Shown here: piece after piece, positions 4,574 to 40,656 of the stretch
Numbering within the stretch: the stretch's first letter is position 1
How the letters are laid out: each line of letters opens with the position of its first letter
Source of the DNA: a virus
Virus record (IMG/VR): IMGVR_UViG_3300032308_002246
Location: 96,001-160,000 of that record
Direction: 5' to 3' (one strand)
Length of the DNA: 64,000 bases
Notes under the pieces: generated by a model
What the model was told of the DNA's origin: nothing
Databases searched by the model: none
Seen by the model: the letters and a program-made list of their open reading frames with translations, nothing else
Translations under genes and position numbers: made by a program

Positions 4574-5113
4574 ATGAGTACCGTCCATTACACGATGAGT
4601 GATGATGCTTTTGCACACTTGGTTGCTCAGGACATTAAGAATAAAGTTAACGATAAGCAGCGTGAGTTTCTGCGTGAATCGCAAAATGTAAACCGTTGGG
4701 CTAGGTGCCTAGATGCACTTCTGCTGAATCTCAATGAGCAAATAGAGGACATTGAAAGCGATATAGAGTCAGATACTGAGCAGTATTCTGCTCTTGGCGA
4801 AGACGGAACCGCTCTTCTTGCAGAGGCAATGCACCATTACCTTGGACAAAAACGCAAGATTGAAAAGTTCAAGGGCTATGTGTCACGGAAGATAAAAGAA
4901 GTAGCAGAGCTTGTTGCAATGCTTGAAAACGGAGTTTCGTCAGAAGACGACATCTTGGTTATGTGCAGGCAAGCAATCATCAGGCACCGGAAAGAGCTAA
5001 ACGACAACGACATTGAACCGACTCCATACGACGAAGCTCTGTGGGAAGTTTTGAATGGACGATGGAACTTTGAAGAAATTGAGTATGACGGAGCGAACCT
5101 AATTGAGATATAG
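4574..5113 (+). CDS. Hypothetical coiled-coil protein
   Basis: 179 aa, strong AAGGAG SD, helical and acidic composition. Confidence 0.75.
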   Translation: MSTVHYTMSDDAFAHLVAQDIKNKVNDKQREFLRESQNVNRWARCLDALLLNLNEQIEDIESDIESDTEQYSALGEDGTALLAEAMHHYLGQKRKIEKFKGYVSRKIKEVAELVAMLENGVSSEDDILVMCRQAIIRHRKELNDNDIEPTPYDEALWEVLNGRWNFEEIEYDGANLIEI

Positions 5114-5405
5114 GTCTGCCAAAAAAGAAAAAGAATATGTCGAGAGGAGAAAACTCGTTGCTCGACTTCTTGAAGAAAAACCATGGTGTGAGGCTTGTCC
5201 AGTTTTTGCTGAACACGATGGAAAAAAAATGTACAAACGCAATCAATCATCTGATTTGCATGAACTGAAGAGGCGCTCTCAAGGCGGCTCAATTCTGGAT
5301 GAAGAAAACATAATTTGTGTTTGCAGACCGTGCCATACCAGAATTGGAAATTATCCACAATTAGCTTTTGACCTTGGTCTAGCAAAGCACGGCTGGGAAG
5401 AATAA
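5103..5405 (+). CDS. HNH endonuclease
   Basis: CEAC...DLHE...RSQGGS...NIICVCRPCH zinc-binding HNH signature. Confidence 0.88.
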   Translation: MRYRSAKKEKEYVERRKLVARLLEEKPWCEACPVFAEHDGKKMYKRNQSSDLHELKRRSQGGSILDEENIICVCRPCHTRIGNYPQLAFDLGLAKHGWEE

Positions 5406-5480
5406 ATTCTTTTATAAGTTTTATTTCTGTTCTAATAATAATTAACACACAAGATATTTATTACTGGTGTATTGTTGTAA

Positions 5481-5552
5481 TCCTTAGGACCGTTATAGGC
5501 GCGAGGGCCGGGTGCACAGGGCAACGTGCGGCACCCGGTTCTTGCGTGTAAT
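5481..5552 (+). ncRNA. Putative structured small RNA 1 (long GC-rich hairpin)
   Basis: 17-bp stem 5499-5515/5531-5547 with four G-U pairs that favour the + strand, set in AT-rich intergenic DNA; TATTGT -10-like element at 5470-5475. Could instead be a terminator lacking a U-tract. Confidence 0.45.
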
Positions 5553-5618
5553 CAATTAAAAAAATCCACATATTTATTACCAGTTTCTATAAATATAGTT
5601 GGGTATAAAATCTCCTCA

Positions 5619-5727
5619 TACGACTTAGGGAGGGGGTGGTCCATTTCTAAACGGGAAACCGTTGCAAGAAATATCCTTTACCTGGATTTGCCACTGTGAG
5701 AAAAAATCACAGTGGCTTCTTGCTTTC
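5619..5727 (+). ncRNA. Putative structured small RNA 2 with 17-nt complement to the 16S rRNA 3' end
   Basis: TATAAAAT -10-like element at 5604-5611; AGGGAGGGGGTGGTCCA at 5627-5643; GAAA-tetraloop hairpin 5650-5663; three-way junction 5664-5723 ending in a short U-tract. Confidence 0.55.
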
Positions 5728-5745
5728 TGGTGTAGTTTTAATTAA

Positions 5746-6264
5746 GTGAATAGAAAGATAATGGGCTTAGACCTATCGCTGACTTCAACCGGATGGTCGT
5801 GCGATGGTGAGTACGGAGTCATATCTTCAAAGAATAAAAAGACACAAAGACTTGTTGATATATCTGGTGAGATTTTAGAAAAATGCTCAAAGCACAAAGT
5901 TGAAACCGTTGTAATCGAAGGTTATTCTTTTGCTTCTAGAAGTGGCCAGGCGTTCTCCATTGGGGAGCTTGGCGGAGTTGTTAGATTCTGTTTGCTTCAA
6001 TCTGGTTTTGAGTTTGTAGAGGTTCCACCTACGGTTAGGGCAAAATTTGCAACCGGTAGAGGCAATGCAGCTAAGTCAGAAGTTGTTTCAGCAATATCCG
6101 CAAAGACTGGAATTGTCTGGACTGGTTCTGGGGCTGATGACATGTGCGACGCTTGGATATTAGAAGAAATAGGTTTGGTCCACTATGGACAACAACGGTT
6201 TGATTGGCCTAAACTGAACATGTCAGCGCTTGAAAGCCTTGACTGGACACCAACTACTAGATAA
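5746..6264 (+). CDS. ruvC: RuvC-like Holliday junction resolvase
   Basis: IMGLDLSLTSTG, VVIEG, GELGGV, PPTVRAKFATGRGNAAK, DDMCDA acidic catalytic motifs. Confidence 0.9.
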   Translation: MNRKIMGLDLSLTSTGWSCDGEYGVISSKNKKTQRLVDISGEILEKCSKHKVETVVIEGYSFASRSGQAFSIGELGGVVRFCLLQSGFEFVEVPPTVRAKFATGRGNAAKSEVVSAISAKTGIVWTGSGADDMCDAWILEEIGLVHYGQQRFDWPKLNMSALESLDWTPTTR

Positions 6265-6274
6265 AGGAAGAACT

Positions 6275-6613
6275 TTGAGCAGAAGTAGCCCGATTAGCCA
6301 GGTCGAAGTTGAAGAAGAACTTTTGCGTCTTGTATCTGTTCTTGAAACAGAAACAGAAGCATTTGAGACGCTCGCAGTAGATGCGGCAAAAAAGGAAGCC
6401 GCCTATAAGTCAAACTGGGCAAAATCATACCTTGGAGCGAAAGGCTCAATCAGGGAACGAGAAGCATGGGCCGACTACCAAATGAATGACGAGAATTACG
6501 ATTATAAAATATCGGAAGGTCTTGTAAAAGCAAAACGAGAACAACTTCTATCTCTTCGCACATCAATTGATGCTCTTAGAACGCTCAATGCAAACGTTAG
6601 GTCGCAGGTATGA
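6275..6613 (+). CDS. Hypothetical helical protein (possibly a recombination mediator)
   Basis: Likely TTG start at 6275 after AAGGAAG; coiled-coil character; lies in the recombination cluster. Confidence 0.6.
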   Translation: MSRSSPISQVEVEEELLRLVSVLETETEAFETLAVDAAKKEAAYKSNWAKSYLGAKGSIREREAWADYQMNDENYDYKISEGLVKAKREQLLSLRTSIDALRTLNANVRSQV

Positions 6614-6711
6614 GGCTGAGCAAGAAGAATAAAAAGCTGTTCCCAGAAAAACTTACGAACGACAAAAGCTATTCATTTTCAATACTCAAAAAGAAAAAGA
6701 AAAAGAAATGA
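6610..6711 (+). CDS. 33-aa basic micro-protein ending in K7 (not in ORF track)
   Basis: MRLSKKNKKLFPEKLTNDKSYSFSILKKKKKKK*; ATGA overlaps with both neighbouring genes. Confidence 0.5.
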   Translation: MRLSKKNKKLFPEKLTNDKSYSFSILKKKKKKK

Positions 6712-7487
6712 CAGAGAACATACATCCATCGCTATCTGGGATGACCATACCAATAAGTCAGCTGCGTCCACTTGAAAATAATCCACGGCGTGGAGATATT
6801 GGTGCGATTATTTCTTCTTTTAGGGAATTTGGACAAGTAACGCCAATAGTTGTTAAAGACAATGGCGATTCAACATTTACCGTCATATCGGGAAACCATA
6901 GGCTTGCGGCTGCAAAACAAATGGGATGGACAGAGCTTGCTTGCATTGATTTTGATGGCAACGATAAATCTGCAATTGCATTTGCCTTAGCCGACAACAA
7001 GACATCAGAGCTTGGAGAAACAGACCAATCAGTATTAATAGAAATGATTAACAGCATTTCATCGGATTATGTCGAGCTTTTTGACAAGCTTGGTTGGGAT
7101 GATTTTGAAATAGCTTCACTTTCGGTTGACGAAATTAGAAGTTCAAAAAACGATAATCGTTCCGGCTATGTTGCTCCACCAGAAGTAAATCCGTTTAAAC
7201 CACAGAATGATGTAGCTCCGTCTGTAGAAAAAAACTCAAACGACGAGAACATCTATGTTGCTTCAGATGAAGTAAACGAGACCGAAGCAGTAACTCGTGG
7301 AAGCTCTGCAGTGAACATCAAGGGTGGAGAAAAAGCTGTAGTCCAATACACGCTTGTTTTTGATGACTCATCACAACAGCGTGACTGGTATGACTTTATT
7401 CGTTACATACGAAATGACCCTGCGTACATGGGTGATACAACAGCTGCCAAGCTGATTGACTTCATTCGTTCTCATGCGGACTTCTAA
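6708..7487 (+). CDS. ParB/Srx N-terminal domain protein
   Basis: NNPRRGD...FGQVTPIVV...VISGNHRLAAAKQMGW...ALADNKTSEL. Confidence 0.88.
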   Translation: MTENIHPSLSGMTIPISQLRPLENNPRRGDIGAIISSFREFGQVTPIVVKDNGDSTFTVISGNHRLAAAKQMGWTELACIDFDGNDKSAIAFALADNKTSELGETDQSVLIEMINSISSDYVELFDKLGWDDFEIASLSVDEIRSSKNDNRSGYVAPPEVNPFKPQNDVAPSVEKNSNDENIYVASDEVNETEAVTRGSSAVNIKGGEKAVVQYTLVFDDSSQQRDWYDFIRYIRNDPAYMGDTTAAKLIDFIRSHADF

Positions 7488-8650
7488 TGCCTAGACAGCG
7501 GATGTTTTTGTCAATGTCTTGCGTGGACGCTGCCCGTGAGAGGATGCGCCACATATACGACACTTTTGACACTGTGTGCATACAGTTTTCCGGAGGAAAA
7601 GATTCAACAGCAATTCTGTATTTGGCAAAAGAAATACACGAAGAGCGCAATCTTGGTCCTGTAAAAGTTATTTTTAGAGACGAAGAAATGCTGAGCCCAA
7701 CAATTGTCAAGTTTGTTGAAGAAGTACGCAATTATGACTGGGTTGACATGGAGTGGTACTGCTTGCCGATGGGCACGGATGTTTGGGTGCTTGGCAGACG
7801 TCAGTACTGCCTGCTGTGGTCAGCACAGCGCGCCAGAGAAGGCCGTCTAACGAGACAGATGCCAGAATGGGCAATAACAGCCGAGGACTTTGGGCTTGAC
7901 CCAAATAAACCAATACCGCAGACGATTGACTACTACACGATGCAGGGCAAAAAAGGCAAGGTTGCATTTGTAATGGGAGTTAGAGCAAATGAATCAATGA
8001 TTCGTTATCGCTCATTGGTTCAAAAACTGCATGAGAATTATATTGTTGTTCCGTACCGTTCAAAACGAAACATACCCCTTCGTTTTGCAAAGCCGATTTA
8101 CGACTGGACAACCGATGATGTTTTTAAGTTCATCGTCGAGGAACACGGTGGGACATACTGCGAGTACTACGACCTAGCTTCTTCAACAGGAAGCAACACA
8201 CGCGTAGGTATACCTTTGCACGCAGTTGCTGTTAGGCGGATAGGCGATGTTGTTGCAACGGAGCCAGAGTTCTATGACCGGCTGTGGGATATATTTCCCC
8301 ACCTTGATGCGCAGAGGAGAATTTGGCCAGACTACGACATAGAAATGGTCATTATGCGTTATGCCAAAGATGGGTGGGATGGAGTCAGGCGTTGCATTGA
8401 CGAAAACATACTCACAAAAGGCTTAGCTCAACGAGCTCTTGCTTACTCAGCAGAATTTCGTCGAAAGAGCATGAAGGAGCCGCTTTCCTATCCTGTTCAC
8501 TGGTTAATCAGAAATCTTCTAATGCATGAATTCATCGGAACATCTCCGCACCCAATTGGCCCAGGGACAAAAGCGTATTCACTTGCAATGAAAGAAGCTT
8601 CCGAACTTGCAGACATGGATTCACTTGACATAAAAGACGAGAAAATGTAG
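7487..8650 (+). CDS. PAPS-reductase-family PP-loop protein (IbrA/YbdN/DndC-like)
   Basis: AARERMRHIYDTFD...FSGGKDS, FRDEE, WYCLP, GVRANESMIR, PIYDWTTDDV. Confidence 0.88.
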   Translation: MPRQRMFLSMSCVDAARERMRHIYDTFDTVCIQFSGGKDSTAILYLAKEIHEERNLGPVKVIFRDEEMLSPTIVKFVEEVRNYDWVDMEWYCLPMGTDVWVLGRRQYCLLWSAQRAREGRLTRQMPEWAITAEDFGLDPNKPIPQTIDYYTMQGKKGKVAFVMGVRANESMIRYRSLVQKLHENYIVVPYRSKRNIPLRFAKPIYDWTTDDVFKFIVEEHGGTYCEYYDLASSTGSNTRVGIPLHAVAVRRIGDVVATEPEFYDRLWDIFPHLDAQRRIWPDYDIEMVIMRYAKDGWDGVRRCIDENILTKGLAQRALAYSAEFRRKSMKEPLSYPVHWLIRNLLMHEFIGTSPHPIGPGTKAYSLAMKEASELADMDSLDIKDEKM

Positions 8651-8659
8651 GATTTGAAA

Positions 8660-9217
8660 ATGTCTAATTCTCCAATCAACAACATCTCTTGGGTAGAAAT
8701 TGAAAAGCTAAAGCCGGCCGACTGGAGAACCACGCACACTCTCAAGCCAGACCTCAAGGTTCTGGCCGGTTCAATACTAGATTTTGGCTGGACTAGCCCA
8801 ATTGTTGTCCAGAAGGGTTCGTTCAAAATTATTGACGGATTCCACAGGTGGGTTTGTGCTCAATCTGAACCAGTAAAGAAAATGGGGAACGGAAAAGTCC
8901 CAATCGTGATTGTTGATGTTGACGAGATAGACGCAATGCTCATGCACGTGAGGCTGAACCGTGGCAGGGGCGATGTCGTGACGAAGCATCTTTCCAATCT
9001 TGTTCGCTCGGTTGTGCACTCAAAGAAATACTCAATTGAGCAGATAAAAGATTTGCTGACTATGAGCAACTCGGAAATTGCAGCAATGGTTGACGGCACC
9101 GTAATCAAGCAACGCAAAATAAAGGAGCACACGTACTCTAGGGCATGGGTTCCAATTGAGGCTCCGAGCGAGCCAGAAATGCCTTCTCTAGAGCGTCCGC
9201 CAAACGCAGATAGATAA
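8660..9217 (+). CDS. ParB-like protein (IbrB/YbdM-like)
   Basis: SILDFGWTSPIVV...IIDGFHRW...RLNRGRG; directly follows the IbrA-like gene. Confidence 0.85.
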   Translation: MSNSPINNISWVEIEKLKPADWRTTHTLKPDLKVLAGSILDFGWTSPIVVQKGSFKIIDGFHRWVCAQSEPVKKMGNGKVPIVIVDVDEIDAMLMHVRLNRGRGDVVTKHLSNLVRSVVHSKKYSIEQIKDLLTMSNSEIAAMVDGTVIKQRKIKEHTYSRAWVPIEAPSEPEMPSLERPPNADR

Positions 9218-14047: not shown

Positions 14048-14533
14048 ATGACAGAAAAATCAGCTCCTAAAGAAATTCAAGAAGAAACAATCCTCAATCA
14101 GTTGAAGTCCGTTATTGCCAAGAAAGTAGAACGGGCAGAAGTTTTTATTGAGGTCCCAGAACGCATCGGCGTAAAATTGCTGGTTAGCCCAAATGTTACT
14201 CAACAACAAATGAGAGCATGGCAGAAGCAGTGTGGCGGAGATTCTCCTAAGGGGATGGACGCAACAAAGTTTGCATGCACAGTTGTTGGACAAACAACAA
14301 AGGGTGTTTTTCTAAACGGCGAAGAAGTTCTTGATGATGGTTGGCCATGCACATTTGGTTCACCAATCATCTTGGAAATGACAGGTACGACAAAAGCAGT
14401 TCCAGACGCAGTTCAAAAGTTTTTTGGTCTGGATGCACATGTTGAAGCAGCAGCTCTTGCAATCATTGAAGCCTGTGGTTTTGGTGACACAATCTCGGCG
14501 GAGGCTACCGAAAACCCTACGAAACGGTCATAG
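14048..14533 (+). CDS. Tail assembly chaperone (gpG-like)
   Basis: Lies between tube and tape measure; ends just after a slippery heptamer. Confidence 0.78.
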   Translation: MTEKSAPKEIQEETILNQLKSVIAKKVERAEVFIEVPERIGVKLLVSPNVTQQQMRAWQKQCGGDSPKGMDATKFACTVVGQTTKGVFLNGEEVLDDGWPCTFGSPIILEMTGTTKAVPDAVQKFFGLDAHVEAAALAIIEACGFGDTISAEATENPTKRS

Positions 14534-14741: not shown

Positions 14742-17700
14742 GTGGCTGACGCACGCGCAACGATAAAAATAAATGTAATCACAGACAAGAAAGATTTTGC
14801 GTCTGCGATTGCACAAATGAACGGGCTAAATAGCGCACTCGGAAACGGCTCAACAAACTCAAATAAATTCACCCAGTCTCTAAATAAGACAACTACTTCT
14901 TTTAAAAGCTACTCTGGTGGCGCAATGGGTGCGGTAAAAGCAACCCGTGGTTTCAATAACCAAACATTGACTTCACAAAAACTTATTGGTGCATTGAATA
15001 AATCCATGAGAGCAATATTCTGGATTGTTATTGCATTGGGTATCGAGTTTGCAATAACAGCAGCCACGCTTGCATCAGTTAATGCAGCATTTACAGTTGG
15101 GAGAATGGCCGTCAAGGCCTACCATGTCTCACTAGGACTGCTCGCCGGCGCTCTAGCTTCAGTTACAGCAGCCATAGGCGTTGGTCTTGCTGCTTTTCAG
15201 GAATACACAGCAGCGATGACTGCGTTTAGCTACAAGGGCGTAAACGAACTTGGTGACGGCATGGAACAGTCATCGAGCGCAATGAGAAATTTTGCAAAAG
15301 ATACATCACTTGCAACCATGGGTGTTGTTGCACTAACTCAAGCTTATTCAACTATGGCAAAACAGGCACCTGTTAGTGCCGCTCAAAGAAAAGCACTTGC
15401 CGGAGCACTTGACTTTACAACTACTGCAGAAGACCCAAAGAAAGCATTCCAGAGTCTTTCTCAGTTTATTGGATTAGTAACAAAAGCAAAAAAAGTTGAC
15501 TCAAAAGCAACAAGAGCAGCTCAATCGGTTAGCCCTGAGTTTGCAAAAGCAGTAGCTGGACAAAAAGATAAATCAGCTGGAGCAATACTTGCGTCTTTGT
15601 CAAGTGGACAGTTGGCCACTTCTGCTGGCGTAAGTGGAAACTACAAGATGCAACAAACACTTGTTGGTCAATTCCAGTCTTTTTTAACAGACCTAGTTGT
15701 TCAGCTAACAGACTTTGGTAGAAAACTTTTAGAGCCAGCAAAAGATGTCCTTGATTCTTTTTACAAAAACTTTAGAAATGCATTCAGAAGAACAGAAGGA
15801 ATAATAAGCGGTTTTGCAACAGGCACAATGATGCCTGGATTGATAACAATCGGAAACACAATTGAAGAATTTTCAGTAAAACTCCTAAGAGATTATTTAC
15901 CAAAAATTAGCGGTGGTGCTGATTGGCTAAGAAAAACATTTAGCGACCTAAAAGCATCATTTGCTCAATTTGTTAATTCCTTAGACAAATTTAGAGCAGG
16001 TTCAAAAATAATTACAGACACCTTTGGAGAACCGTTACTTGCGCTATTTAAAGGATTTGGTAGAAATGCTGAACAACTTGGTTATCTTGCTGAAGACAAC
16101 GAAGAAGCATTTTTGAAGTGGGGTAAAGCTCTTGAAGGATTAGTATTCTCAATCTTTGATTTTTTTGCTGCAATGAAAGTTGCTTTCACAGAGGCACTTC
16201 CAGTGCTAACACAAATCGTAAATGGACTAGCGTCGTTGATTCGTGGTTTGTCTGCAGTTATAAGCCTTACTGGAACTCTTGGTGGCGGTGGAGGAAACAG
16301 CGGCACGGTAAATGCAGGAATGGGACCAGTCCTATCAGCGGCGCTTACGATGGGTCTCATGTATGGAGGATTTAAAGGTAGACGTCGTTTTGGAAGAGGT
16401 GGTGGGATAGGAACAAAAACTGGACCCTCAACTGCAAGCAAATATGGTTATCAGCAAGCCGCAATGAATCAGCCATTGTCCCAGGCTCTATTTGGGCAGT
16501 TGGGTTTTGGTGGAGTTATTGGCAGAACCGGTTCTGCTATCTCAGGGGGAAGGAGTTTTGGTTCAAAAATTTCCGGAGGGTTTACTGCCATGCTGGGTGG
16601 GAATTCACGTTCTGTTGCAAATCAAGGAGCTATAGCAGCTAACACAATGTACAGACAGCAAACCGGAAGAAATGCTACAAGCGGTCTTACTATCCCGAAG
16701 ATTGGGGATTTTGACCCATACACAGGTAAAACCATAACTAGCGCAAAAGATTTGGCAGATGCAAGAAGGGCACGGCGTTCATTAAACCGGCTGACATATA
16801 GAGACCTTTTAAAGACCGCAAGAACTGGCGACGCAAGAAATTTGAGCACAAGTGCCGCTGGTAGCGGTTTTGCAAAAACAACAGTAGGACGAACAAATCC
16901 TCTTACTGGCGCAACAATGAATGCCAGACAAGCTGCAATGTTTGGAATTAGAAGCAAGGTTGGTGGAGCAATGACTGGCCGAGTTGAGGCTATGCAGGCC
17001 GGTCTAAGAGGTTCGTTTACGCCTGGCCTTGGAATGGCTGGTTCACTGATTACGGCTTCTGGTGTTACCTCAAGGATAGGAAATGAAACAGCTCGTTCTG
17101 CTGTTGACATGGGCCTTGCCGGTTCATACTTTGGCAAGCGAGGCGCAATAGTTGGTGCCGGACTTGGTGTTATGTCTAAAACAACAAACTATTTAGCTGG
17201 TTCCATAGCTGGTGGTGCTACAGGCGCACAAATAGCTGGAGTTATAACAGCGGGCCTACCTCCACAAGCTCAAGCAATTGGTAAGGCTTTAGGTTTTGCT
17301 ATTGGTACAGCAGTTGGAATATTTACCGTGCGGGCCAGAAGAACAAAAATAGCAAAAGGTGTAGCTGACGCAATGGTCCAGCAAACTGGAGCGCGCTCTA
17401 TTGAAGCTCTGTTAAAAAGTCCAATATTGAGCACTGTTAGCGCCACTGCGCAAATTACCAAAGACACCAAAATATATGATAAAGCAATAGCTATGTCTAG
17501 AGGAGGCACTAGTGATTCTGCGGTAAGAGACTACCTGCTTTCGACCGGAACAATAACCCAACAGCAAGCACAAGCAATTGACATGAATGACGGTGGTTTT
17601 ATTGACCAACTTGAGTCAAATAATCTTGCTTTAAAAATGCAGGGCGAGTCTTACAAAAAATTTGAAAATAATATCAACGCATTAACCTTATCAACTGGCA

Positions 17701-20386: not shown

Positions 20387-21886
20387 ATGGCACAATCAAT
20401 TTATGAAGGATATCCTTCCGAACCAGAACCAATCATCGCTGGAAATATAAATGTACTTGCTAGGCCCCAGATTAGAACACGAAAAAAAACTGATGGCTCA
20501 ATCGTAATTGACCCAGCTGGTCCAGATGTTTCAACTCTAATTACAGCTACTTTAACAAAAAGAATAAACGGCGAACTTCGTGATATAAATTTACCATTAT
20601 TGAGTTCAGACGGCAGGACTGTTTACACAGAAGCTCAAGCTTGGGCTCAGTATCAAAAAGATGGCCTTCATTTGGGCATATTTGAAAAAGTAAAAAAACA
20701 GTATAAATCATCAAACGGAGTATTTGAATCAAAACTCATCGCTGTCATAGCTGCCGAAAAGCTTTCAGAATTAGAACAGGCAAGAGTAAATGCCTTAATC
20801 AAATTAAATTCATCTGCATATAATGGAAATGATTATGCAATATCAGATAGAACAGATATACAAGAAATACTATCAATATTCAACATAACTGGACTTAGGC
20901 AAAGTGAATCAGAAACTCTTGCTAGAAGAATGACATCACTGACAGTAAGTTATTCATCCAATGCATCAACCGAGGTTTCAGTTCAATATTTAGACACAAA
21001 CTACAGTATTTTAGAAAATAGATATTTTGACTTAAGAAGAGATGTCCTCTATCGAGGCAGGTCATACGAGGTTGGCGAGGTTTCAACTTCTCCTGGCTCT
21101 GGCGGGTCACCTGTTGTAAGCATTAGGTGTTGGCCAAAAAATGTTCAGCTGATGAAAAGAGATAAAAAACCTGAACTTATTGCTGGAACAAATGGTTTTG
21201 AATACGCTCAATCTGTTGCAAGACGTTACAGCATGCCTTTTATTGGCCAAAAAACGGGAAAACAACAAGCACTTTTTAAGGCAAGGACATCAAGCGGTGC
21301 AGACAGTTCGGTGTGGAATGTTCTGGGCGAGGCAGCTGGACAAAACCAGTATCAATTATTTGAAGTAGATGGGCAGCTAATTTACGGTTCTCTCCAATGG
21401 ATGCTTTGGAAGTTTGGATTATCTTCAAAACTATCGCCAAAGGGAACAACACAAAAATATATTGATTTGGTCTACAACCCGAATCTACCAAATAACGGTG
21501 CCGTTGATACTGAAGTGGAAACAACAATATATTCATATTCGCCAACCGGCGGCGGCCCGTCATCAATGGTTTATGACGATACTGGAATAGTGGCAGAAAA
21601 GTTAATTACAAAAGTAGAGTCAAAAGCTTTTGAGCTGACAACATGGCCAGAAATAAGAAGGTCAGAAAATGATGGCCTAGAGGGGGATGGTACGGCTACG
21701 TTAAAATCTCCAAATGGAAGATTGATACGACCAGGGCACACTGTTTTCTTTTCGGGAATGCCAGAGTTTTTTAGAGGTGGATATATAGTAAGCGGTGTTT
21801 CATTTTCTGAATTTGATTCTCAACCAGTGCAGATAAATTTTAACACTCCACAAAAACCAAAAGACCAGAAAAAACCAACAGAGTAG
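20387..21886 (+). CDS. Baseplate hub protein (gpD / Mu gp44-like)
   Basis: Position; C-terminal IRPGHTVFFSGMPEFFRGGYIVSGVS pattern typical of hub proteins. Confidence 0.6.
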   Translation: MAQSIYEGYPSEPEPIIAGNINVLARPQIRTRKKTDGSIVIDPAGPDVSTLITATLTKRINGELRDINLPLLSSDGRTVYTEAQAWAQYQKDGLHLGIFEKVKKQYKSSNGVFESKLIAVIAAEKLSELEQARVNALIKLNSSAYNGNDYAISDRTDIQEILSIFNITGLRQSESETLARRMTSLTVSYSSNASTEVSVQYLDTNYSILENRYFDLRRDVLYRGRSYEVGEVSTSPGSGGSPVVSIRCWPKNVQLMKRDKKPELIAGTNGFEYAQSVARRYSMPFIGQKTGKQQALFKARTSSGADSSVWNVLGEAAGQNQYQLFEVDGQLIYGSLQWMLWKFGLSSKLSPKGTTQKYIDLVYNPNLPNNGAVDTEVETTIYSYSPTGGGPSSMVYDDTGIVAEKLITKVESKAFELTTWPEIRRSENDGLEGDGTATLKSPNGRLIRPGHTVFFSGMPEFFRGGYIVSGVSFSEFDSQPVQINFNTPQKPKDQKKPTE

Positions 21887-36529: not shown

Positions 36530-39500
36530 TGGCTTATAAGAAAATACTCTTTCGCCGCGATACGTCTTCAAATTGGGCTAGCGCAAACCCTATTTTGGCT
36601 GCTGGTGAAATCGGTCTTGAGTCCAACACCAACAAGATAAAACTTGGTAATGGCTCGACTAGATGGAATGCCCTGTCGTATTTTTACGGAAGTCTTGACA
36701 CTACTGGAATTGACGCACTTAGCGACGTAGTCATAACAAGTGCACAAAATGGCGATTTTCTTCGCTGGAACGGAACTGCCTGGGTAAACGACCCGGTCAA
36801 TCTTGGGGATGACACGGTCGGCAGCTTTGTCCAGAACCTTGTTGCTGGAACCGGCGTAACGCTAACCAACAACACTGGCGAAAAGGCTACTCCAACCGTG
36901 GCTATTGGCCAGGCTGTTGCAACTTCATCTTCTGTACAATTTGCCGCAGTTACTGCACCAGTTATCGGTAACGCAAGCACCGCAAGCTCGCTGCAAACAG
37001 CGCGAACAATTCAAGTTAGCGGCGATGTTTCTGGTTCTGCATCTTTTGATGGTTCACAAAACATAAACATCACTTCGGAAATCCAGCCAAACTCGGTAGC
37101 TCTTGGCACTGACACCACTGGTGATTACGTAACCTCACTTGTTGCTGGAACTGGCGTTACCCTTAGCAATAACTCAGGTGAATCAGCATCACCAACTATT
37201 GCAATTGGCCAAGAAGTAGCAACCTCATCATCCGTTACATTTGCTCACATTAATGGAAACGTAACAGGAAATTTGACAGGAAATGCCTCAACCGCTGCTG
37301 CACTACAAACACCTCGAACTATTTCTCTTACTGGTGATTTGTCTGGTTCTGTGTCATTTGATGGTTCAAACAATGTTTCAATTACCACTACGATTGAACC
37401 AAACTCTGTAGCTCTTGGCACCGACACAACCGGAAACTACATGGCCGAAGTTACTGGTGGCACTGGTATAACAGTTACCCACACCCCAGGTGAAGGTTCA
37501 AACGCAACAATATCAATCGGGCAGGCTGTAACAACAGCAGATACACCAACTTTTGCTGGAGCATACCTAGACGCAATAAGAGTCGGTGTTACAAACGCTA
37601 ATACGATTGACACTGCATCTGGTGGTTTGACTCTTGACTCAACTGGTGGAACAACAACTGTTGATGACAACTTGGTAGTTACTGGAACGCTGACAGTATC
37701 TGGTTCTGTTGCATACATAAGCACAACCAACTTAGAAGTTGGAGACAGTGTAATTATTCTTAATCACGATGAAACTGGGTCTCCATCTCAGAACGCCGGT
37801 ATAGAGATTGAACGCGGAACATCAACAAATGTCGTTCTTCATTACAACGAAACTTCTGATGTTTGGGAATTAACCAACAATGGTTCTACTTATTCTCCAA
37901 TCGAAACTACTTCGACAGTAGAAACAAAGATTAAGCAACAGCTGTGGCTTAATGACGTATATGCCGCAACAACTGGCGTGCTTCCAAACTCTCCTACATA
38001 TACCGCTGGCAGCGCAGACGCAAACGGTGGAACTGGTGTTGGAGCAAAACTCACAGCAACAACAAACGGAGAACTATCAATTGACGGCGCTCCAGCCGCT
38101 TTGAACTACCGAGTTCTAGTCAAGGACCAAGCCAACAATTTACACAACGGAATCTACAAAGTAACCGCAGCTGGTTCACCATCTACAACATGGGAACTGA
38201 CAAGAGCAGCAGACTTTGATAACTCAACATTTGGTCAGGTTACTTACGGAAAATCAGTAAGAATAGCGACTGGCGATATAAACATATTGCAAACTTTCAT
38301 CCTCACGTCGTTTGGTACTGTTTACCTAAACGAGCTTGAGGAAATGGTTCACGTAATTGGGACTGACCCAATTTCATGGTCTCAAGCGAGCGGCAAGGCA
38401 GTTCTGATTCCAGGCAATGGTTTGGAAATAACAAACAATGTTCTGGCGCTTCCATCAATCACTCAGTCGAATACAGCATCAACGTCCGGTGGTTTTAATT
38501 TTGTACAGGGCGTAAACGTTGACTCATATGGTCGCTTACTTGGTGTTACAACAAATGATGTTCTTATTGACTTGGGCATAAATACTCAGGGCGACTATGT
38601 ACAAAGCGTCTCTGCTTCAGTTAATACTGGCATTACAGTTTCTGGAACTGGCGAGGGCGCAACTGTATCTGTTGGTTCAAATGCAACTCCAGACAACACA
38701 ATTAACGCAATAGTTATGCGTGATGGAAGCGGAAACTTTATTGCTGGGAACATTACAGCAGAACTGACTGGAAACGCTTCATCAGCGAACACCCTTTATG
38801 CCACACGTTCAATCGGTTTAACCGGAGACCTAAGCGGCTCTGTTTCGTTCGACGGTTCTCAAGATGTTGTTATAAATGCAATAATTGAATCAAACTCAAT
38901 CGCTCTTGGTGGTGACACAACTGGCGACTATGTAAGCACGATTACTCAGGGCACTGGTGTAACGGTGACTGGCGGTACTGGTGAGACATCAACGCCAACA
39001 ATCGCAATTGGTCAAGATGTTGGCACCAGCTCTTCCGTAACTTTCGCACAAGTTAATGCACTTCTTGTCGGAAACGTAAATGGAAACGTAACTGGGAATG
39101 TCACTGGAAACGTTAATGGAAACGTCACTGGAACCCTAACTGGAAATGTTTTTGGAAATGTTACTGGTAGTTCTGGAACCGTAACCTCAATAGGCACGCA
39201 TGGACTGGATGCGCTTTCAGACGTAACTGCTCCGTCGCCAGCATCGGGCGAGTTCTTGAAATGGAACGGCTCTGCTTGGGTGCCAGATGTAATCGATTTG
39301 TCAACAGACACAAGTGGAAACTTTGTTTCCTCAATCAATGCTGGAACTGGTGTTTCGCTTACGAACGGTGTTGCCCAAGAAGCTGGAACACCAACCATAA
39401 ACATTGGTCAGGCTATAGGCACAACAAATTCACCGTCGTTTGCAAACCTTTCAGTAGGTAATGCACAGGTAAACGCAACAAATCTTACCTATAGCGGTGG

Positions 39501-40656
39501 CACCAACCTTGCTACAGTAACCGCCATTGACCACGGTCTTGCCATTGGGGCAAGGATAACGGTATCAGGAGCGACTCAAACTGGATACAACGGAACATAT
39601 TCAATCGTTTCGGTTCCAACTTCTTCAACATTTACATACCAACCAGCAGTTGGTCCATCTGCAAACATAGCCTCTGGCACATATTTGGTTTATGTTGCTG
39701 GCGCTATAACTTTTGAAGGTTCAACTGATGACTCGTTTGAAACAACGATTGTTGCTACAGACCCAACGGCAGACAGAATTATTTCTTTGCCAGATGCGAC
39801 AACTCAATTAGTTGGTAGAGACACAACAGATACTCTTACGAACAAAACTCTAACAAGCCCAACTATCACTGGTGTATCACCAGTAATCACTTTGGGTGGA
39901 GATTTGAGTGGTTCAGCTACATTCACAGACCTTGGCAACGCAACGCTTACAGCGACAATCGCTGCAAACTCTGTGGCTCTTGGAACAGATACAACCGGTA
40001 GCTACGTTGAAAGCCTTGTACAGGGTACTGGTGTTACAATCATCAACAACTCAGGCGAAAGTGCAACACCGACAATCTCCATTGGTCAGGCAGTTGGGAC
40101 CAGTGCATGCGTTCAGTTTGACACTTTGACTGTAACAAACCTGTTTGCAACAAACAGCCAGTCAAGCAATGCGTCTGAGCTGAATGTTTCGGACAGCAAG
40201 ATTGTTTTGAATGCAGGAACTACTGGCGCTCCAACGGTTAATGGTTCTATCATCATTGATAGAGGCTCAAGTGCAAGCGTTGAAATTCGATGGAACGAAA
40301 CCAGTGACAGATGGGAAGCAACATCTGACGGCACGACATACACTCAAATAGCTGCTGGCGCAAAAATGACCATTGGAGAAACACCTCCTTCGTCGCCAGC
40401 AAATGGTGACTTCTGGTTTGAGTCGGACTCCGCTATCACGTTCGTTTATTACGACTCGTACTGGGTTCAAATTGGTTCATCCGGAATTGGTGCTGTAACA
40501 ACGGCATCCGCTCCATCTAACCCTGCAAACGGCCAAATATGGTTCAATAGCACAACCGACGAAATGTATGTTTATTATGACGGCGCATGGGTCCTGGTAA
40601 ATAGCGCAACTAACACCAGTGACATAGAAATTGCGTCTATCATGGGAGCGTATTAA
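36529..40656 (+). CDS. Long tail fibre with Mtd-N / hyaluronidase-N-like N-terminus
   Basis: RRDTSSNWASANPILAAGEIGLE...KLGNG...WNAL; LGTDTTG modules; GNVT repeats; RVLVKDQ...NGIY domain. Confidence 0.85.
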   Translation: MAYKKILFRRDTSSNWASANPILAAGEIGLESNTNKIKLGNGSTRWNALSYFYGSLDTTGIDALSDVVITSAQNGDFLRWNGTAWVNDPVNLGDDTVGSFVQNLVAGTGVTLTNNTGEKATPTVAIGQAVATSSSVQFAAVTAPVIGNASTASSLQTARTIQVSGDVSGSASFDGSQNINITSEIQPNSVALGTDTTGDYVTSLVAGTGVTLSNNSGESASPTIAIGQEVATSSSVTFAHINGNVTGNLTGNASTAAALQTPRTISLTGDLSGSVSFDGSNNVSITTTIEPNSVALGTDTTGNYMAEVTGGTGITVTHTPGEGSNATISIGQAVTTADTPTFAGAYLDAIRVGVTNANTIDTASGGLTLDSTGGTTTVDDNLVVTGTLTVSGSVAYISTTNLEVGDSVIILNHDETGSPSQNAGIEIERGTSTNVVLHYNETSDVWELTNNGSTYSPIETTSTVETKIKQQLWLNDVYAATTGVLPNSPTYTAGSADANGGTGVGAKLTATTNGELSIDGAPAALNYRVLVKDQANNLHNGIYKVTAAGSPSTTWELTRAADFDNSTFGQVTYGKSVRIATGDINILQTFILTSFGTVYLNELEEMVHVIGTDPISWSQASGKAVLIPGNGLEITNNVLALPSITQSNTASTSGGFNFVQGVNVDSYGRLLGVTTNDVLIDLGINTQGDYVQSVSASVNTGITVSGTGEGATVSVGSNATPDNTINAIVMRDGSGNFIAGNITAELTGNASSANTLYATRSIGLTGDLSGSVSFDGSQDVVINAIIESNSIALGGDTTGDYVSTITQGTGVTVTGGTGETSTPTIAIGQDVGTSSSVTFAQVNALLVGNVNGNVTGNVTGNVNGNVTGTLTGNVFGNVTGSSGTVTSIGTHGLDALSDVTAPSPASGEFLKWNGSAWVPDVIDLSTDTSGNFVSSINAGTGVSLTNGVAQEAGTPTINIGQAIGTTNSPSFANLSVGNAQVNATNLTYSGGTNLATVTAIDHGLAIGARITVSGATQTGYNGTYSIVSVPTSSTFTYQPAVGPSANIASGTYLVYVAGAITFEGSTDDSFETTIVATDPTADRIISLPDATTQLVGRDTTDTLTNKTLTSPTITGVSPVITLGGDLSGSATFTDLGNATLTATIAANSVALGTDTTGSYVESLVQGTGVTIINNSGESATPTISIGQAVGTSACVQFDTLTVTNLFATNSQSSNASELNVSDSKIVLNAGTTGAPTVNGSIIIDRGSSASVEIRWNETSDRWEATSDGTTYTQIAAGAKMTIGETPPSSPANGDFWFESDSAITFVYYDSYWVQIGSSGIGAVTTASAPSNPANGQIWFNSTTDEMYVYYDGAWVLVNSATNTSDIEIASIMGAY

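Follow-up and report, generated by a model that had tools for sequence, protein, structure and literature searches.

The closest described systems are rreB/rreR and STAB-SD. In Alphaproteobacteria rreB/rreR is an RNA of ~165 nt carrying a 17-nt complement of the entire 3' tail of 16S rRNA (Hahn et al. 2017; PMC5711450). This complement is partly hidden in a hairpin and the RNA co-sediments with 30S subunits, its function being still unknown; overproduction of rreB does not slow growth, because ribosomes outnumber it (PMC5711450). The STAB-SD of cryIIIA and the polypurine 5' stabiliser of SP82 (Agaisse & Lereclus 1996; Hue et al. 1995; both as cited in PMC2358910) form the second system.

The locus described here resembles both. 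It lies in a complete virus record of 173,962 bp, of which bases 96001–160000 make up the window, i.e. the whole 64-kb stretch of DNA that was analysed; coordinates refer to the window unless stated otherwise. In this large lake phage of actinobacteria and in dozens of its relatives we recognise a putative gene for a small RNA without a protein product; the bases conserved best in it are complementary to the whole 16S tail on which mRNAs dock. Like rreB/rreR, the predicted RNA has a complementarity of at least 16 nt to the 16S 3' end (17 of 17 positions, four of them G.U) which is kept in relatives. Unlike rreB, which has a conserved 14-codon ORF with its GTG at the last base of the complement, it has neither; it is also virus-encoded and actinobacterial, with a three-way junction fold, its tract tolerates a mismatch or bulge in the SD core, and it usually travels with an anti-23S partner. 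With STAB-SD, which is thought to hold the 30S subunit, it shares a start-less SD-like polypurine, which going by the predicted −10 boxes would also be near the 5' end. STAB-SD, however, is a 9-nt element within the 5' UTR of a longer mRNA, to which it gives stability, whereas the phage tract is 17 nt long and belongs to a predicted discrete, terminated RNA; a terminator-like hairpin (P4) and a separate −10 box precede a leaderless ruvC, so that there is no shared 5' UTR.

To our knowledge, no natural bacterial or phage sRNA acts by pairing with mature rRNA; the protein toxin colicin E3 disables the anti-SD by cutting the 16S tail. A 2025 review of phage sRNAs lists none that pairs with mature rRNA (PMC12197685). 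MazF-mt11 acts on the same 11–17 terminal nucleotides of 16S rRNA as the phage tract, initiation being reprogrammed or stopped (PMC12274833), but both it and colicin E3 are proteins, of host or plasmid origin, that cleave the tail, whereas the phage RNA would pair with it. That ribosomes without an anti-SD selectively translate leaderless mRNAs is disputed (PMC12274833). Translation and growth are blocked by synthetic PNAs directed against the 16S tail and 23S helix 69 (Kulik 2017, Hatamoto 2009; both as cited in PMC12828698). They have the same two target sites as the phage RNAs, and these sites are reachable by antisense, but PNAs are man-made oligomers tested in E. coli and not natural RNAs. 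Finally, a tRNA-Val fragment of Haloferax (PMC5711459) is a small RNA found on the small subunit, where it competes with mRNA; it differs in being an archaeal processing product with no extended rRNA-tail complementarity and no large-subunit partner.

The 16S-tail tract and its surroundings

The 16S-tail RNA unit is held in a 355-nt gap between an HNH gene (5103–5405) and ruvC, within a same-strand array of terminase, Rad52-like protein, PD-(D/E)XK nuclease, HNH, ruvC, ParB/PAPS-reductase and tail genes. The ParB / PAPS-reductase-like / ParB cluster downstream of ruvC spans 6708–9217. Four WhiB-family genes (genome coordinates 17314–17499 on the − strand; 21309–21497, 39498–39689 and 173115–173306 on the + strand) indicate that the host is actinobacterial, i.e. 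that the virus is an actinophage; no bS21 gene was found in the phage. In the rRNA operon of an uncultured actinomycete (L301, Rfam-verified) the 16S 3' end reads ...CTGGATCACCTCCTTTCT, and work on MazF-mt11 places the mature 16S end of mycobacteria 11 nt past the cut between C and ACCU (PMC12274833).

The tract, AGGGAGGGGGTGGTCCA, lies at 5627–5643 on the + strand and is complementary to the 16S 3' tail (UGGAUCACCUCCUUUCU). The sequence-only reading of this DNA had proposed 17 nt of uninterrupted complementarity, and on the L301 operon all 17 positions do pair with the actinobacterial tail. As it had also pointed out, the tract differs from AGAAAGGAGGTGATCCA at four positions, every one an A>G change that stays paired as G.U. 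Pairing of 17/17 with the tail is found at one site in ~348,000 genome positions, the runner-up reaching 15/17. The duplex of tract and tail (−28.4 kcal/mol) is the strongest in the 174-kb genome; the next site (−21.0) is within a coding ORF, and the best of the real SDs of this genome is no stronger than −11.8 kcal/mol. Once G.U pairs are admitted, chance alone often yields 17-nt runs against one part or another of the rRNAs, and the significance of the match therefore rests on its target, the functional tail, on its energy rank and on its conservation in relatives. Pairing of tract positions 15–17 would need the base of 16S helix 45 to be opened.

Other sites were discarded. The second tail-like site, at genome position 170431 (minus strand), falls inside the ORF of an HTH protein, and of three weaker matches to 16S helix 45 at other places in the genome none has a promoter or hairpin context. 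In other viral contigs GGGAGGGGGTGRTCC is coding (membrane protein, terminase small subunit) or unrelated.

The tract had been described as lacking a start codon, and this holds: no ATG, GTG or TTG lies 5–10 nt past the SD core, nor is there a start codon at SD spacing in any group of relatives (groups A to F, see below). A micro-ORF starting at the GTG embedded in GGTGGTC was rejected since this GTG overlaps the SD core and the corresponding ORFs of relatives (4, 6, 11 and 27 codons) are not conserved.

The gene ruvC (5746–6264, + strand; Holliday-junction resolvase, Pfam RuvC match) starts at a GTG. Judged from the aligned sequences, this GTG 5746 is the true start, in relatives too, and ATG 5761 a mis-start: in groups C–E the codon aligned to Met5761 is CTT, and the conserved GTG is the sole in-frame start. 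The −10 element attributed to ruvC is confirmed; the box TAGTTT (5733–5738, + strand) comes directly after the terminator of the 16S-tail element and is conserved as TAGTAT/TAGTTT 6–7 nt before the GTG in all groups, as well as in loci without that element. A conserved −10 of its own at this distance implies that ruvC is leaderless, and thus that the 16S-tail element is a separate unit.

Leaderless starts are not restricted to ruvC. A TANNNT box ending exactly 6 nt before ATG or GTG, which is an actinobacterial leaderless-promoter signature, precedes 20 ORF starts genome-wide against a background of ~4; examples in the window are the starts at 14048, 24095, 34910, 47051 and 48342, and the box is often preceded by a G. 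Only ~30% of the ORFs are preceded by an SD at least as strong as −8 kcal/mol. With ~20 TANNNT-led starts and few strong SDs, the suspected frequent use of leaderless starts by the phage is borne out. In the host phylum about a quarter of the mRNAs are leaderless.

Fold and conservation of the predicted RNA

The −10-like box TATAAAAT (gggTATAAAAT; 5604–5611, + strand) is a putative promoter element, at consensus level, with a predicted +1 at ~5616–5619. Relatives keep a TAnnnT box at the equivalent place, 7 nt ahead of the first conserved segment of the RNA. On the evidence of the fold z-score, of a covariance model (R1) and of the strand of the G.U pairs, we predict a stand-alone small RNA of ~110 nt (unit 2; 5617–5728, + strand); the G.U pairs form on the + strand only, which assigns the RNA to that strand. 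The tract is followed by the P1 hairpin AACGG-GAAA-CCGTT (5650–5663), with compensatory pair types across groups, then by a three-way junction (5664–5723) in which P2 (GCAAGAA/TTCTTGC, 5664–5670 with 5717–5723) encloses P3 (ATCC/GGAT, 5673–5676 with 5684–5687) and P4 (GCCACTGTGA/TCACAGTGGC, 5690–5699 with 5707–5716), all on the + strand. P4 is the sole terminator-like site found in 5000–6400. A U-rich tail (T at 9/12 bases; 5717–5728, + strand) overlaps the 3' strand of P2. Box, hairpin, junction and tail were thus recovered as the sequence-only reading had drawn them. The 3' ends differ between groups: C–F have a canonical TTTTTGCTTT terminator tail, A a U-rich tail, and B no U-tract after the junction.

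The fold z-score against shuffled sequences is −3.4 for 5615–5735 and −7.95 for the whole intergenic region. When the tract is omitted, the minimum-energy fold is alike in nearly all groups, namely P1 followed by P2, with a variable P3 and a strong P4 enclosed in P2. Model R1 rests on groups C, D and E; it detects group F with E ~1e-12, the window's element in full length (5624–5726) at E 0.03–0.05 and one member of group B at ~0.1. The R1-guided alignment has 352 pair cells, of which 321 are canonical; each pair shows several compensatory types, and group B has compensatory changes of its own. The covariation proposed as a check on the structure is therefore found: the fold is kept in relatives by compensatory changes.

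In groups C–F the 5' end of the RNA (UCUAGC/UCCAGC) forms a pseudoknot with the P4 loop (GCUAGA/GCUGGA), again with compensatory changes (L021, L047, L049, L060, L066 and others); 82.7% of the cells are paired, versus 33–49% when the partner is slid. This pseudoknot is absent from group A, to which the window belongs, and from group B. A pseudoknot between linker and P4 loop, and pairing between this unit and its neighbour (unit 1, below), were rejected as they occur in some groups inconsistently. The suggestion that CCTTTACCT pairs back on the G-rich tract as a switch did not hold either, since this pairing is not conserved and the P3 loops are unrelated among groups. Partial self-sequestration of the tract is nevertheless predicted in every group, with an opening cost of 8–15 kcal/mol.

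The Rfam search that had also been proposed found nothing: no family reaches a gathering-score match in the 64-kb window (T-box, HEARO/IscB omega-RNA, 6S and 6C included), and the region 5300–5900 yields chance-level matches only, at E up to 10; the model made from the relatives, R1, does recover the element over its full length. Scans for tRNA and tmRNA found nothing, and no homologue is present in cultured-phage records. A resemblance to a T-box (GGGUGGUAC-like) was considered and rejected, as the element is too short, has its tract at the wrong end and has no Rfam match. A HEARO/IscB omega-RNA, a candidate raised by the flanking HNH and RuvC genes, was rejected too: RuvC is an ordinary PF02075 resolvase of 167–172 aa, Rfam gives no match, and in relatives without the RNAs HNH abuts RuvC directly.

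To follow the element in other phages we used RuvC relatives in 212 viral contigs, from which 80 loci were kept (81 with the window). In 63 of the 81 loci (window included) ruvC is preceded, at an unchanged distance, by the element; these loci form groups between which RuvC is only ~60% identical and G+C ranges from ~42% to 66%. The tract reads AGGGAGGGGGTGGTCCA in group A, AGGGAGGGGGTGATCCG in group B, AGAAGGGCAGGTGGTC / AGAAAGGCAGGTGGTC in groups C and D, AGAAAGGCGGTGGTCC in groups E and F, and AGAAAGGTGGTGGTCC in locus L077. Groups E and F have no G-run, yet they keep AGAAAGG...GGUGGUCC, which fits the tail exactly. Conservation of the complementarity had been put forward as a test of the rRNA target, and across these diverged relatives it is kept, the energy of tract and tail being −21.6 to −28.8 kcal/mol in all groups. 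After subtraction of the cost of opening the RNA's own structure the net energy is −9 to −20 kcal/mol.

The variation within the tract follows the tail. No change is seen where G faces C, U faces A or C faces G, while A/G switching occurs opposite U; the least conserved is the central SD position (G, C, U or a 1-nt insertion). No internal pairing partner is constant across groups. This pattern of variation and the lack of a constant internal partner are best explained if the tract pairs with an external partner that stays constant and has the 16S-tail sequence. Outside the tract no other strongly conserved sequence is found, the architecture alone being kept.

An adjacent unit antisense to 23S helix 69

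A second candidate RNA (unit 1) lies ~135 nt upstream of the 16S-tail unit, in the same gap and on the + strand. Its −10 box TATTGT (gTATTGT; 5470–5475) stands 6 nt before the seed, the predicted +1 being at ~5482. The seed, CCUUAGGACCGUUAUAG (CCTTAGGACCGTTATAG; 5482–5498), is a perfect 17-nt antisense of 23S helix 69, and is followed by a long terminator-like hairpin (5499–5549) after which many relatives have a T-run. Its target, 23S CUAUAACGGUCCUAAGG, takes in the loop of helix 69 together with the 3' strand and flank, as checked on the L301 operon; the target sequence is present across bacterial phyla. No exact match between phage and rRNA is longer, the next being 15 nt. Helix 69, which makes bridge B2a, is exposed on the free 50S subunit only and is buried in the 70S ribosome. 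It is itself a stem, which counts against easy pairing.

Seed and hairpin start are found in >119 viral contigs, always upstream of ruvC. The seed varies only by C>U opposite G and A>G opposite U, with 53 distinct stems behind it. In the loci surveyed (overlapping sets), 57 have both units before ruvC, 21 unit 1 only and 14 (group B) the 16S unit only, and some have neither. In the loci retrieved, no further rRNA site is targeted repeatedly. A remnant of a group I intron or of a homing site was considered for the 23S match and rejected because the similarity stops on both sides after 17 nt, with no intron-like sequence following. The presence of a putative anti-helix-69 sRNA as neighbour gives independent weight to the idea that the ribosome is the target.

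A proposed ribosome-docking RNA and the alternatives

The explanation that we favour, with confidence that stops a little short of even, is that unit 2 is a gene for a start-less sRNA that docks on the ribosome, and that together with unit 1 it makes up a two-RNA cassette directed at the free subunits, 30S and 50S. The argument is that two co-oriented units, each made of a −10 box, a seed and a hairpin, each match interface-exposed rRNA with wobble-only variation, which points to rRNA pairing as their function. In unit 2 itself the −10-like box and the seed are conserved, the seed is predicted to be partly paired, and the terminator is canonical only in groups C–F. The 16S-tail RNA would be made from its own −10 box as a transcript of ~110 nt ending in a terminator-like hairpin. 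Its conserved 5'-proximal tract would pair with the single-stranded 3' tail of host 16S rRNA, and the RNA would thereby dock on the free 30S subunit without starting translation, while the RNA of unit 1 (5482–5549) would take helix 69 of the free 50S subunit. With less confidence, we take the pair to occupy free 30S and 50S, whereby canonical initiation by SD and subunit joining would be depressed and leaderless/70S-type phage initiation spared. We infer that both RNAs are made, that both may bind subunits, and that canonical initiation would be depressed with the leaderless/70S type spared.

The cassette can be read more specifically: the anti-SD and helix 69 would be masked and canonical initiation throttled, while 70S ribosomes keep translating the leaderless or coupled messages of the phage. 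This is possible but on balance doubtful. In a variant of the same reading the 17-bp duplexes of sRNA and rRNA would mark rRNA or pre-rRNA for cleavage by RNase III. The sequence-only reading had proposed a decoy that occupies the anti-SD of 30S subunits, and this is partly supported, by the non-coding nature of a separate unit, the kept complementarity and the leaderless use. Against simple titration, the least conserved position of the tract is the centre of the SD; the unchanged growth on rreB overproduction (PMC5711450) and the dispute over leaderless translation by ribosomes without an anti-SD (PMC12274833) count against it as well. Moreover, most phage genes are operon-internal and ~30% have an SD, so a blunt block would hurt the phage too.

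If the RNAs bind, they would provide the first case of both ribosomal subunits being taken over by RNA, and a natural counterpart of the antisense antibacterials designed against the same two sites. The phage RNAs would also offer a direct test of the disputed question whether disabling the anti-SD favours leaderless translation. Lake viromes contain the family in abundance, with the 23S unit present in >119 contigs, and the RNAs are short enough for immediate synthesis and assay.

It is conceivable, if unlikely, that the tract is instead a 5' stabiliser of the STAB-SD type. A 30S subunit sitting on the start-less SD would block 5'-3' decay by RNase J, and the job of the RNA would be done elsewhere in the molecule. 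Going by the predicted −10 boxes the tract would be 5'-proximal in every group, its distance from the predicted +1 being ~9–13 nt in groups A and B and ~25 nt in C–F. Gram-positives and a phage provide known cases of stabilisation by an orphan polypurine SD (cryIIIA STAB-SD; SP82, Hue 1995), and in mycobacteria the katG mRNA is stabilised by a polypurine ribosome site (PMC2358910). But a stabiliser should serve some business end, and architecture is all that is conserved besides the tract; in groups C–F the 5' end is already locked in the pseudoknot. The 17-nt complementarity goes far beyond the 9 nt of STAB-SD, and stabilisation cannot explain the neighbouring unit that targets 23S rRNA.

We regard as improbable that the G-rich tract is an ordinary trans-acting seed for C/U-rich sites of mRNAs or sRNAs (e.g. 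6C), or is bound by a protein, the 16S match being a side effect. The anatomy of seed, scaffold and terminator would suit such an sRNA, and G-rich sequences pair with many C/U-rich sites. However, the phage genome contains no comparable complementary site, and groups E and F fit the tail exactly in spite of lacking the G-run. The seed is also constant across phages whose hosts differ widely in G+C, as would be expected if its target, like rRNA, does not vary.

There is even less to expect from a cis-acting leader, or a by-product of promoter and terminator, that controls read-through into the ruvC array (an attenuator, or an arrangement like lambda PR'-tR'). The order of the parts fits, with a promoter-like box, a structured leader and the terminator-like P4 with its U-rich tail ahead of a long same-strand gene array, and the minimum-energy fold of groups C and E allows pairing between the tract and a segment of the P3 region, by which P3 would be disrupted. 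Such alternative pairings nevertheless differ between groups, and no terminator/antiterminator pair is conserved; ruvC, being leaderless, has its own conserved −10 box 6–7 nt before the GTG. In a by-product, a 17-nt rRNA complement that varies by wobble only would not persist, and the two units are found singly and in either combination.

That unit 2 is a small mRNA of the rreB type, its extended SD causing a tiny peptide to be weakly translated from a start that is not canonical, is highly improbable: rreB shares the 17-nt complement and binds 30S (PMC5711450), and in the window an ATT with rreB-like spacing (5643–5645) opens an 18-codon frame, but the position equivalent to the rreB start has no ATG, GTG or TTG in any group, frames and lengths are not conserved, and the downstream sequence changes like compensating RNA helices and not like codons.

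Two further observations concern other contigs. In an unrelated viral contig (L120, L160, L181; ~6150–6330 in L120) the same GGGGAGGGGGTGGTCCA tract follows a textbook TTGACT-17-TACAAT promoter, and an ATG after the tract opens a 25-codon ORF just before the next gene; this may be a true extended-SD leader peptide. In some relatives the gap between HNH and ruvC reaches 850–1100 nt and holds a reverse-strand ORF with its own terminator (L049:2151–2700, L047:1897–2620), which suggests that this gap is a hot spot for inserted cargo.
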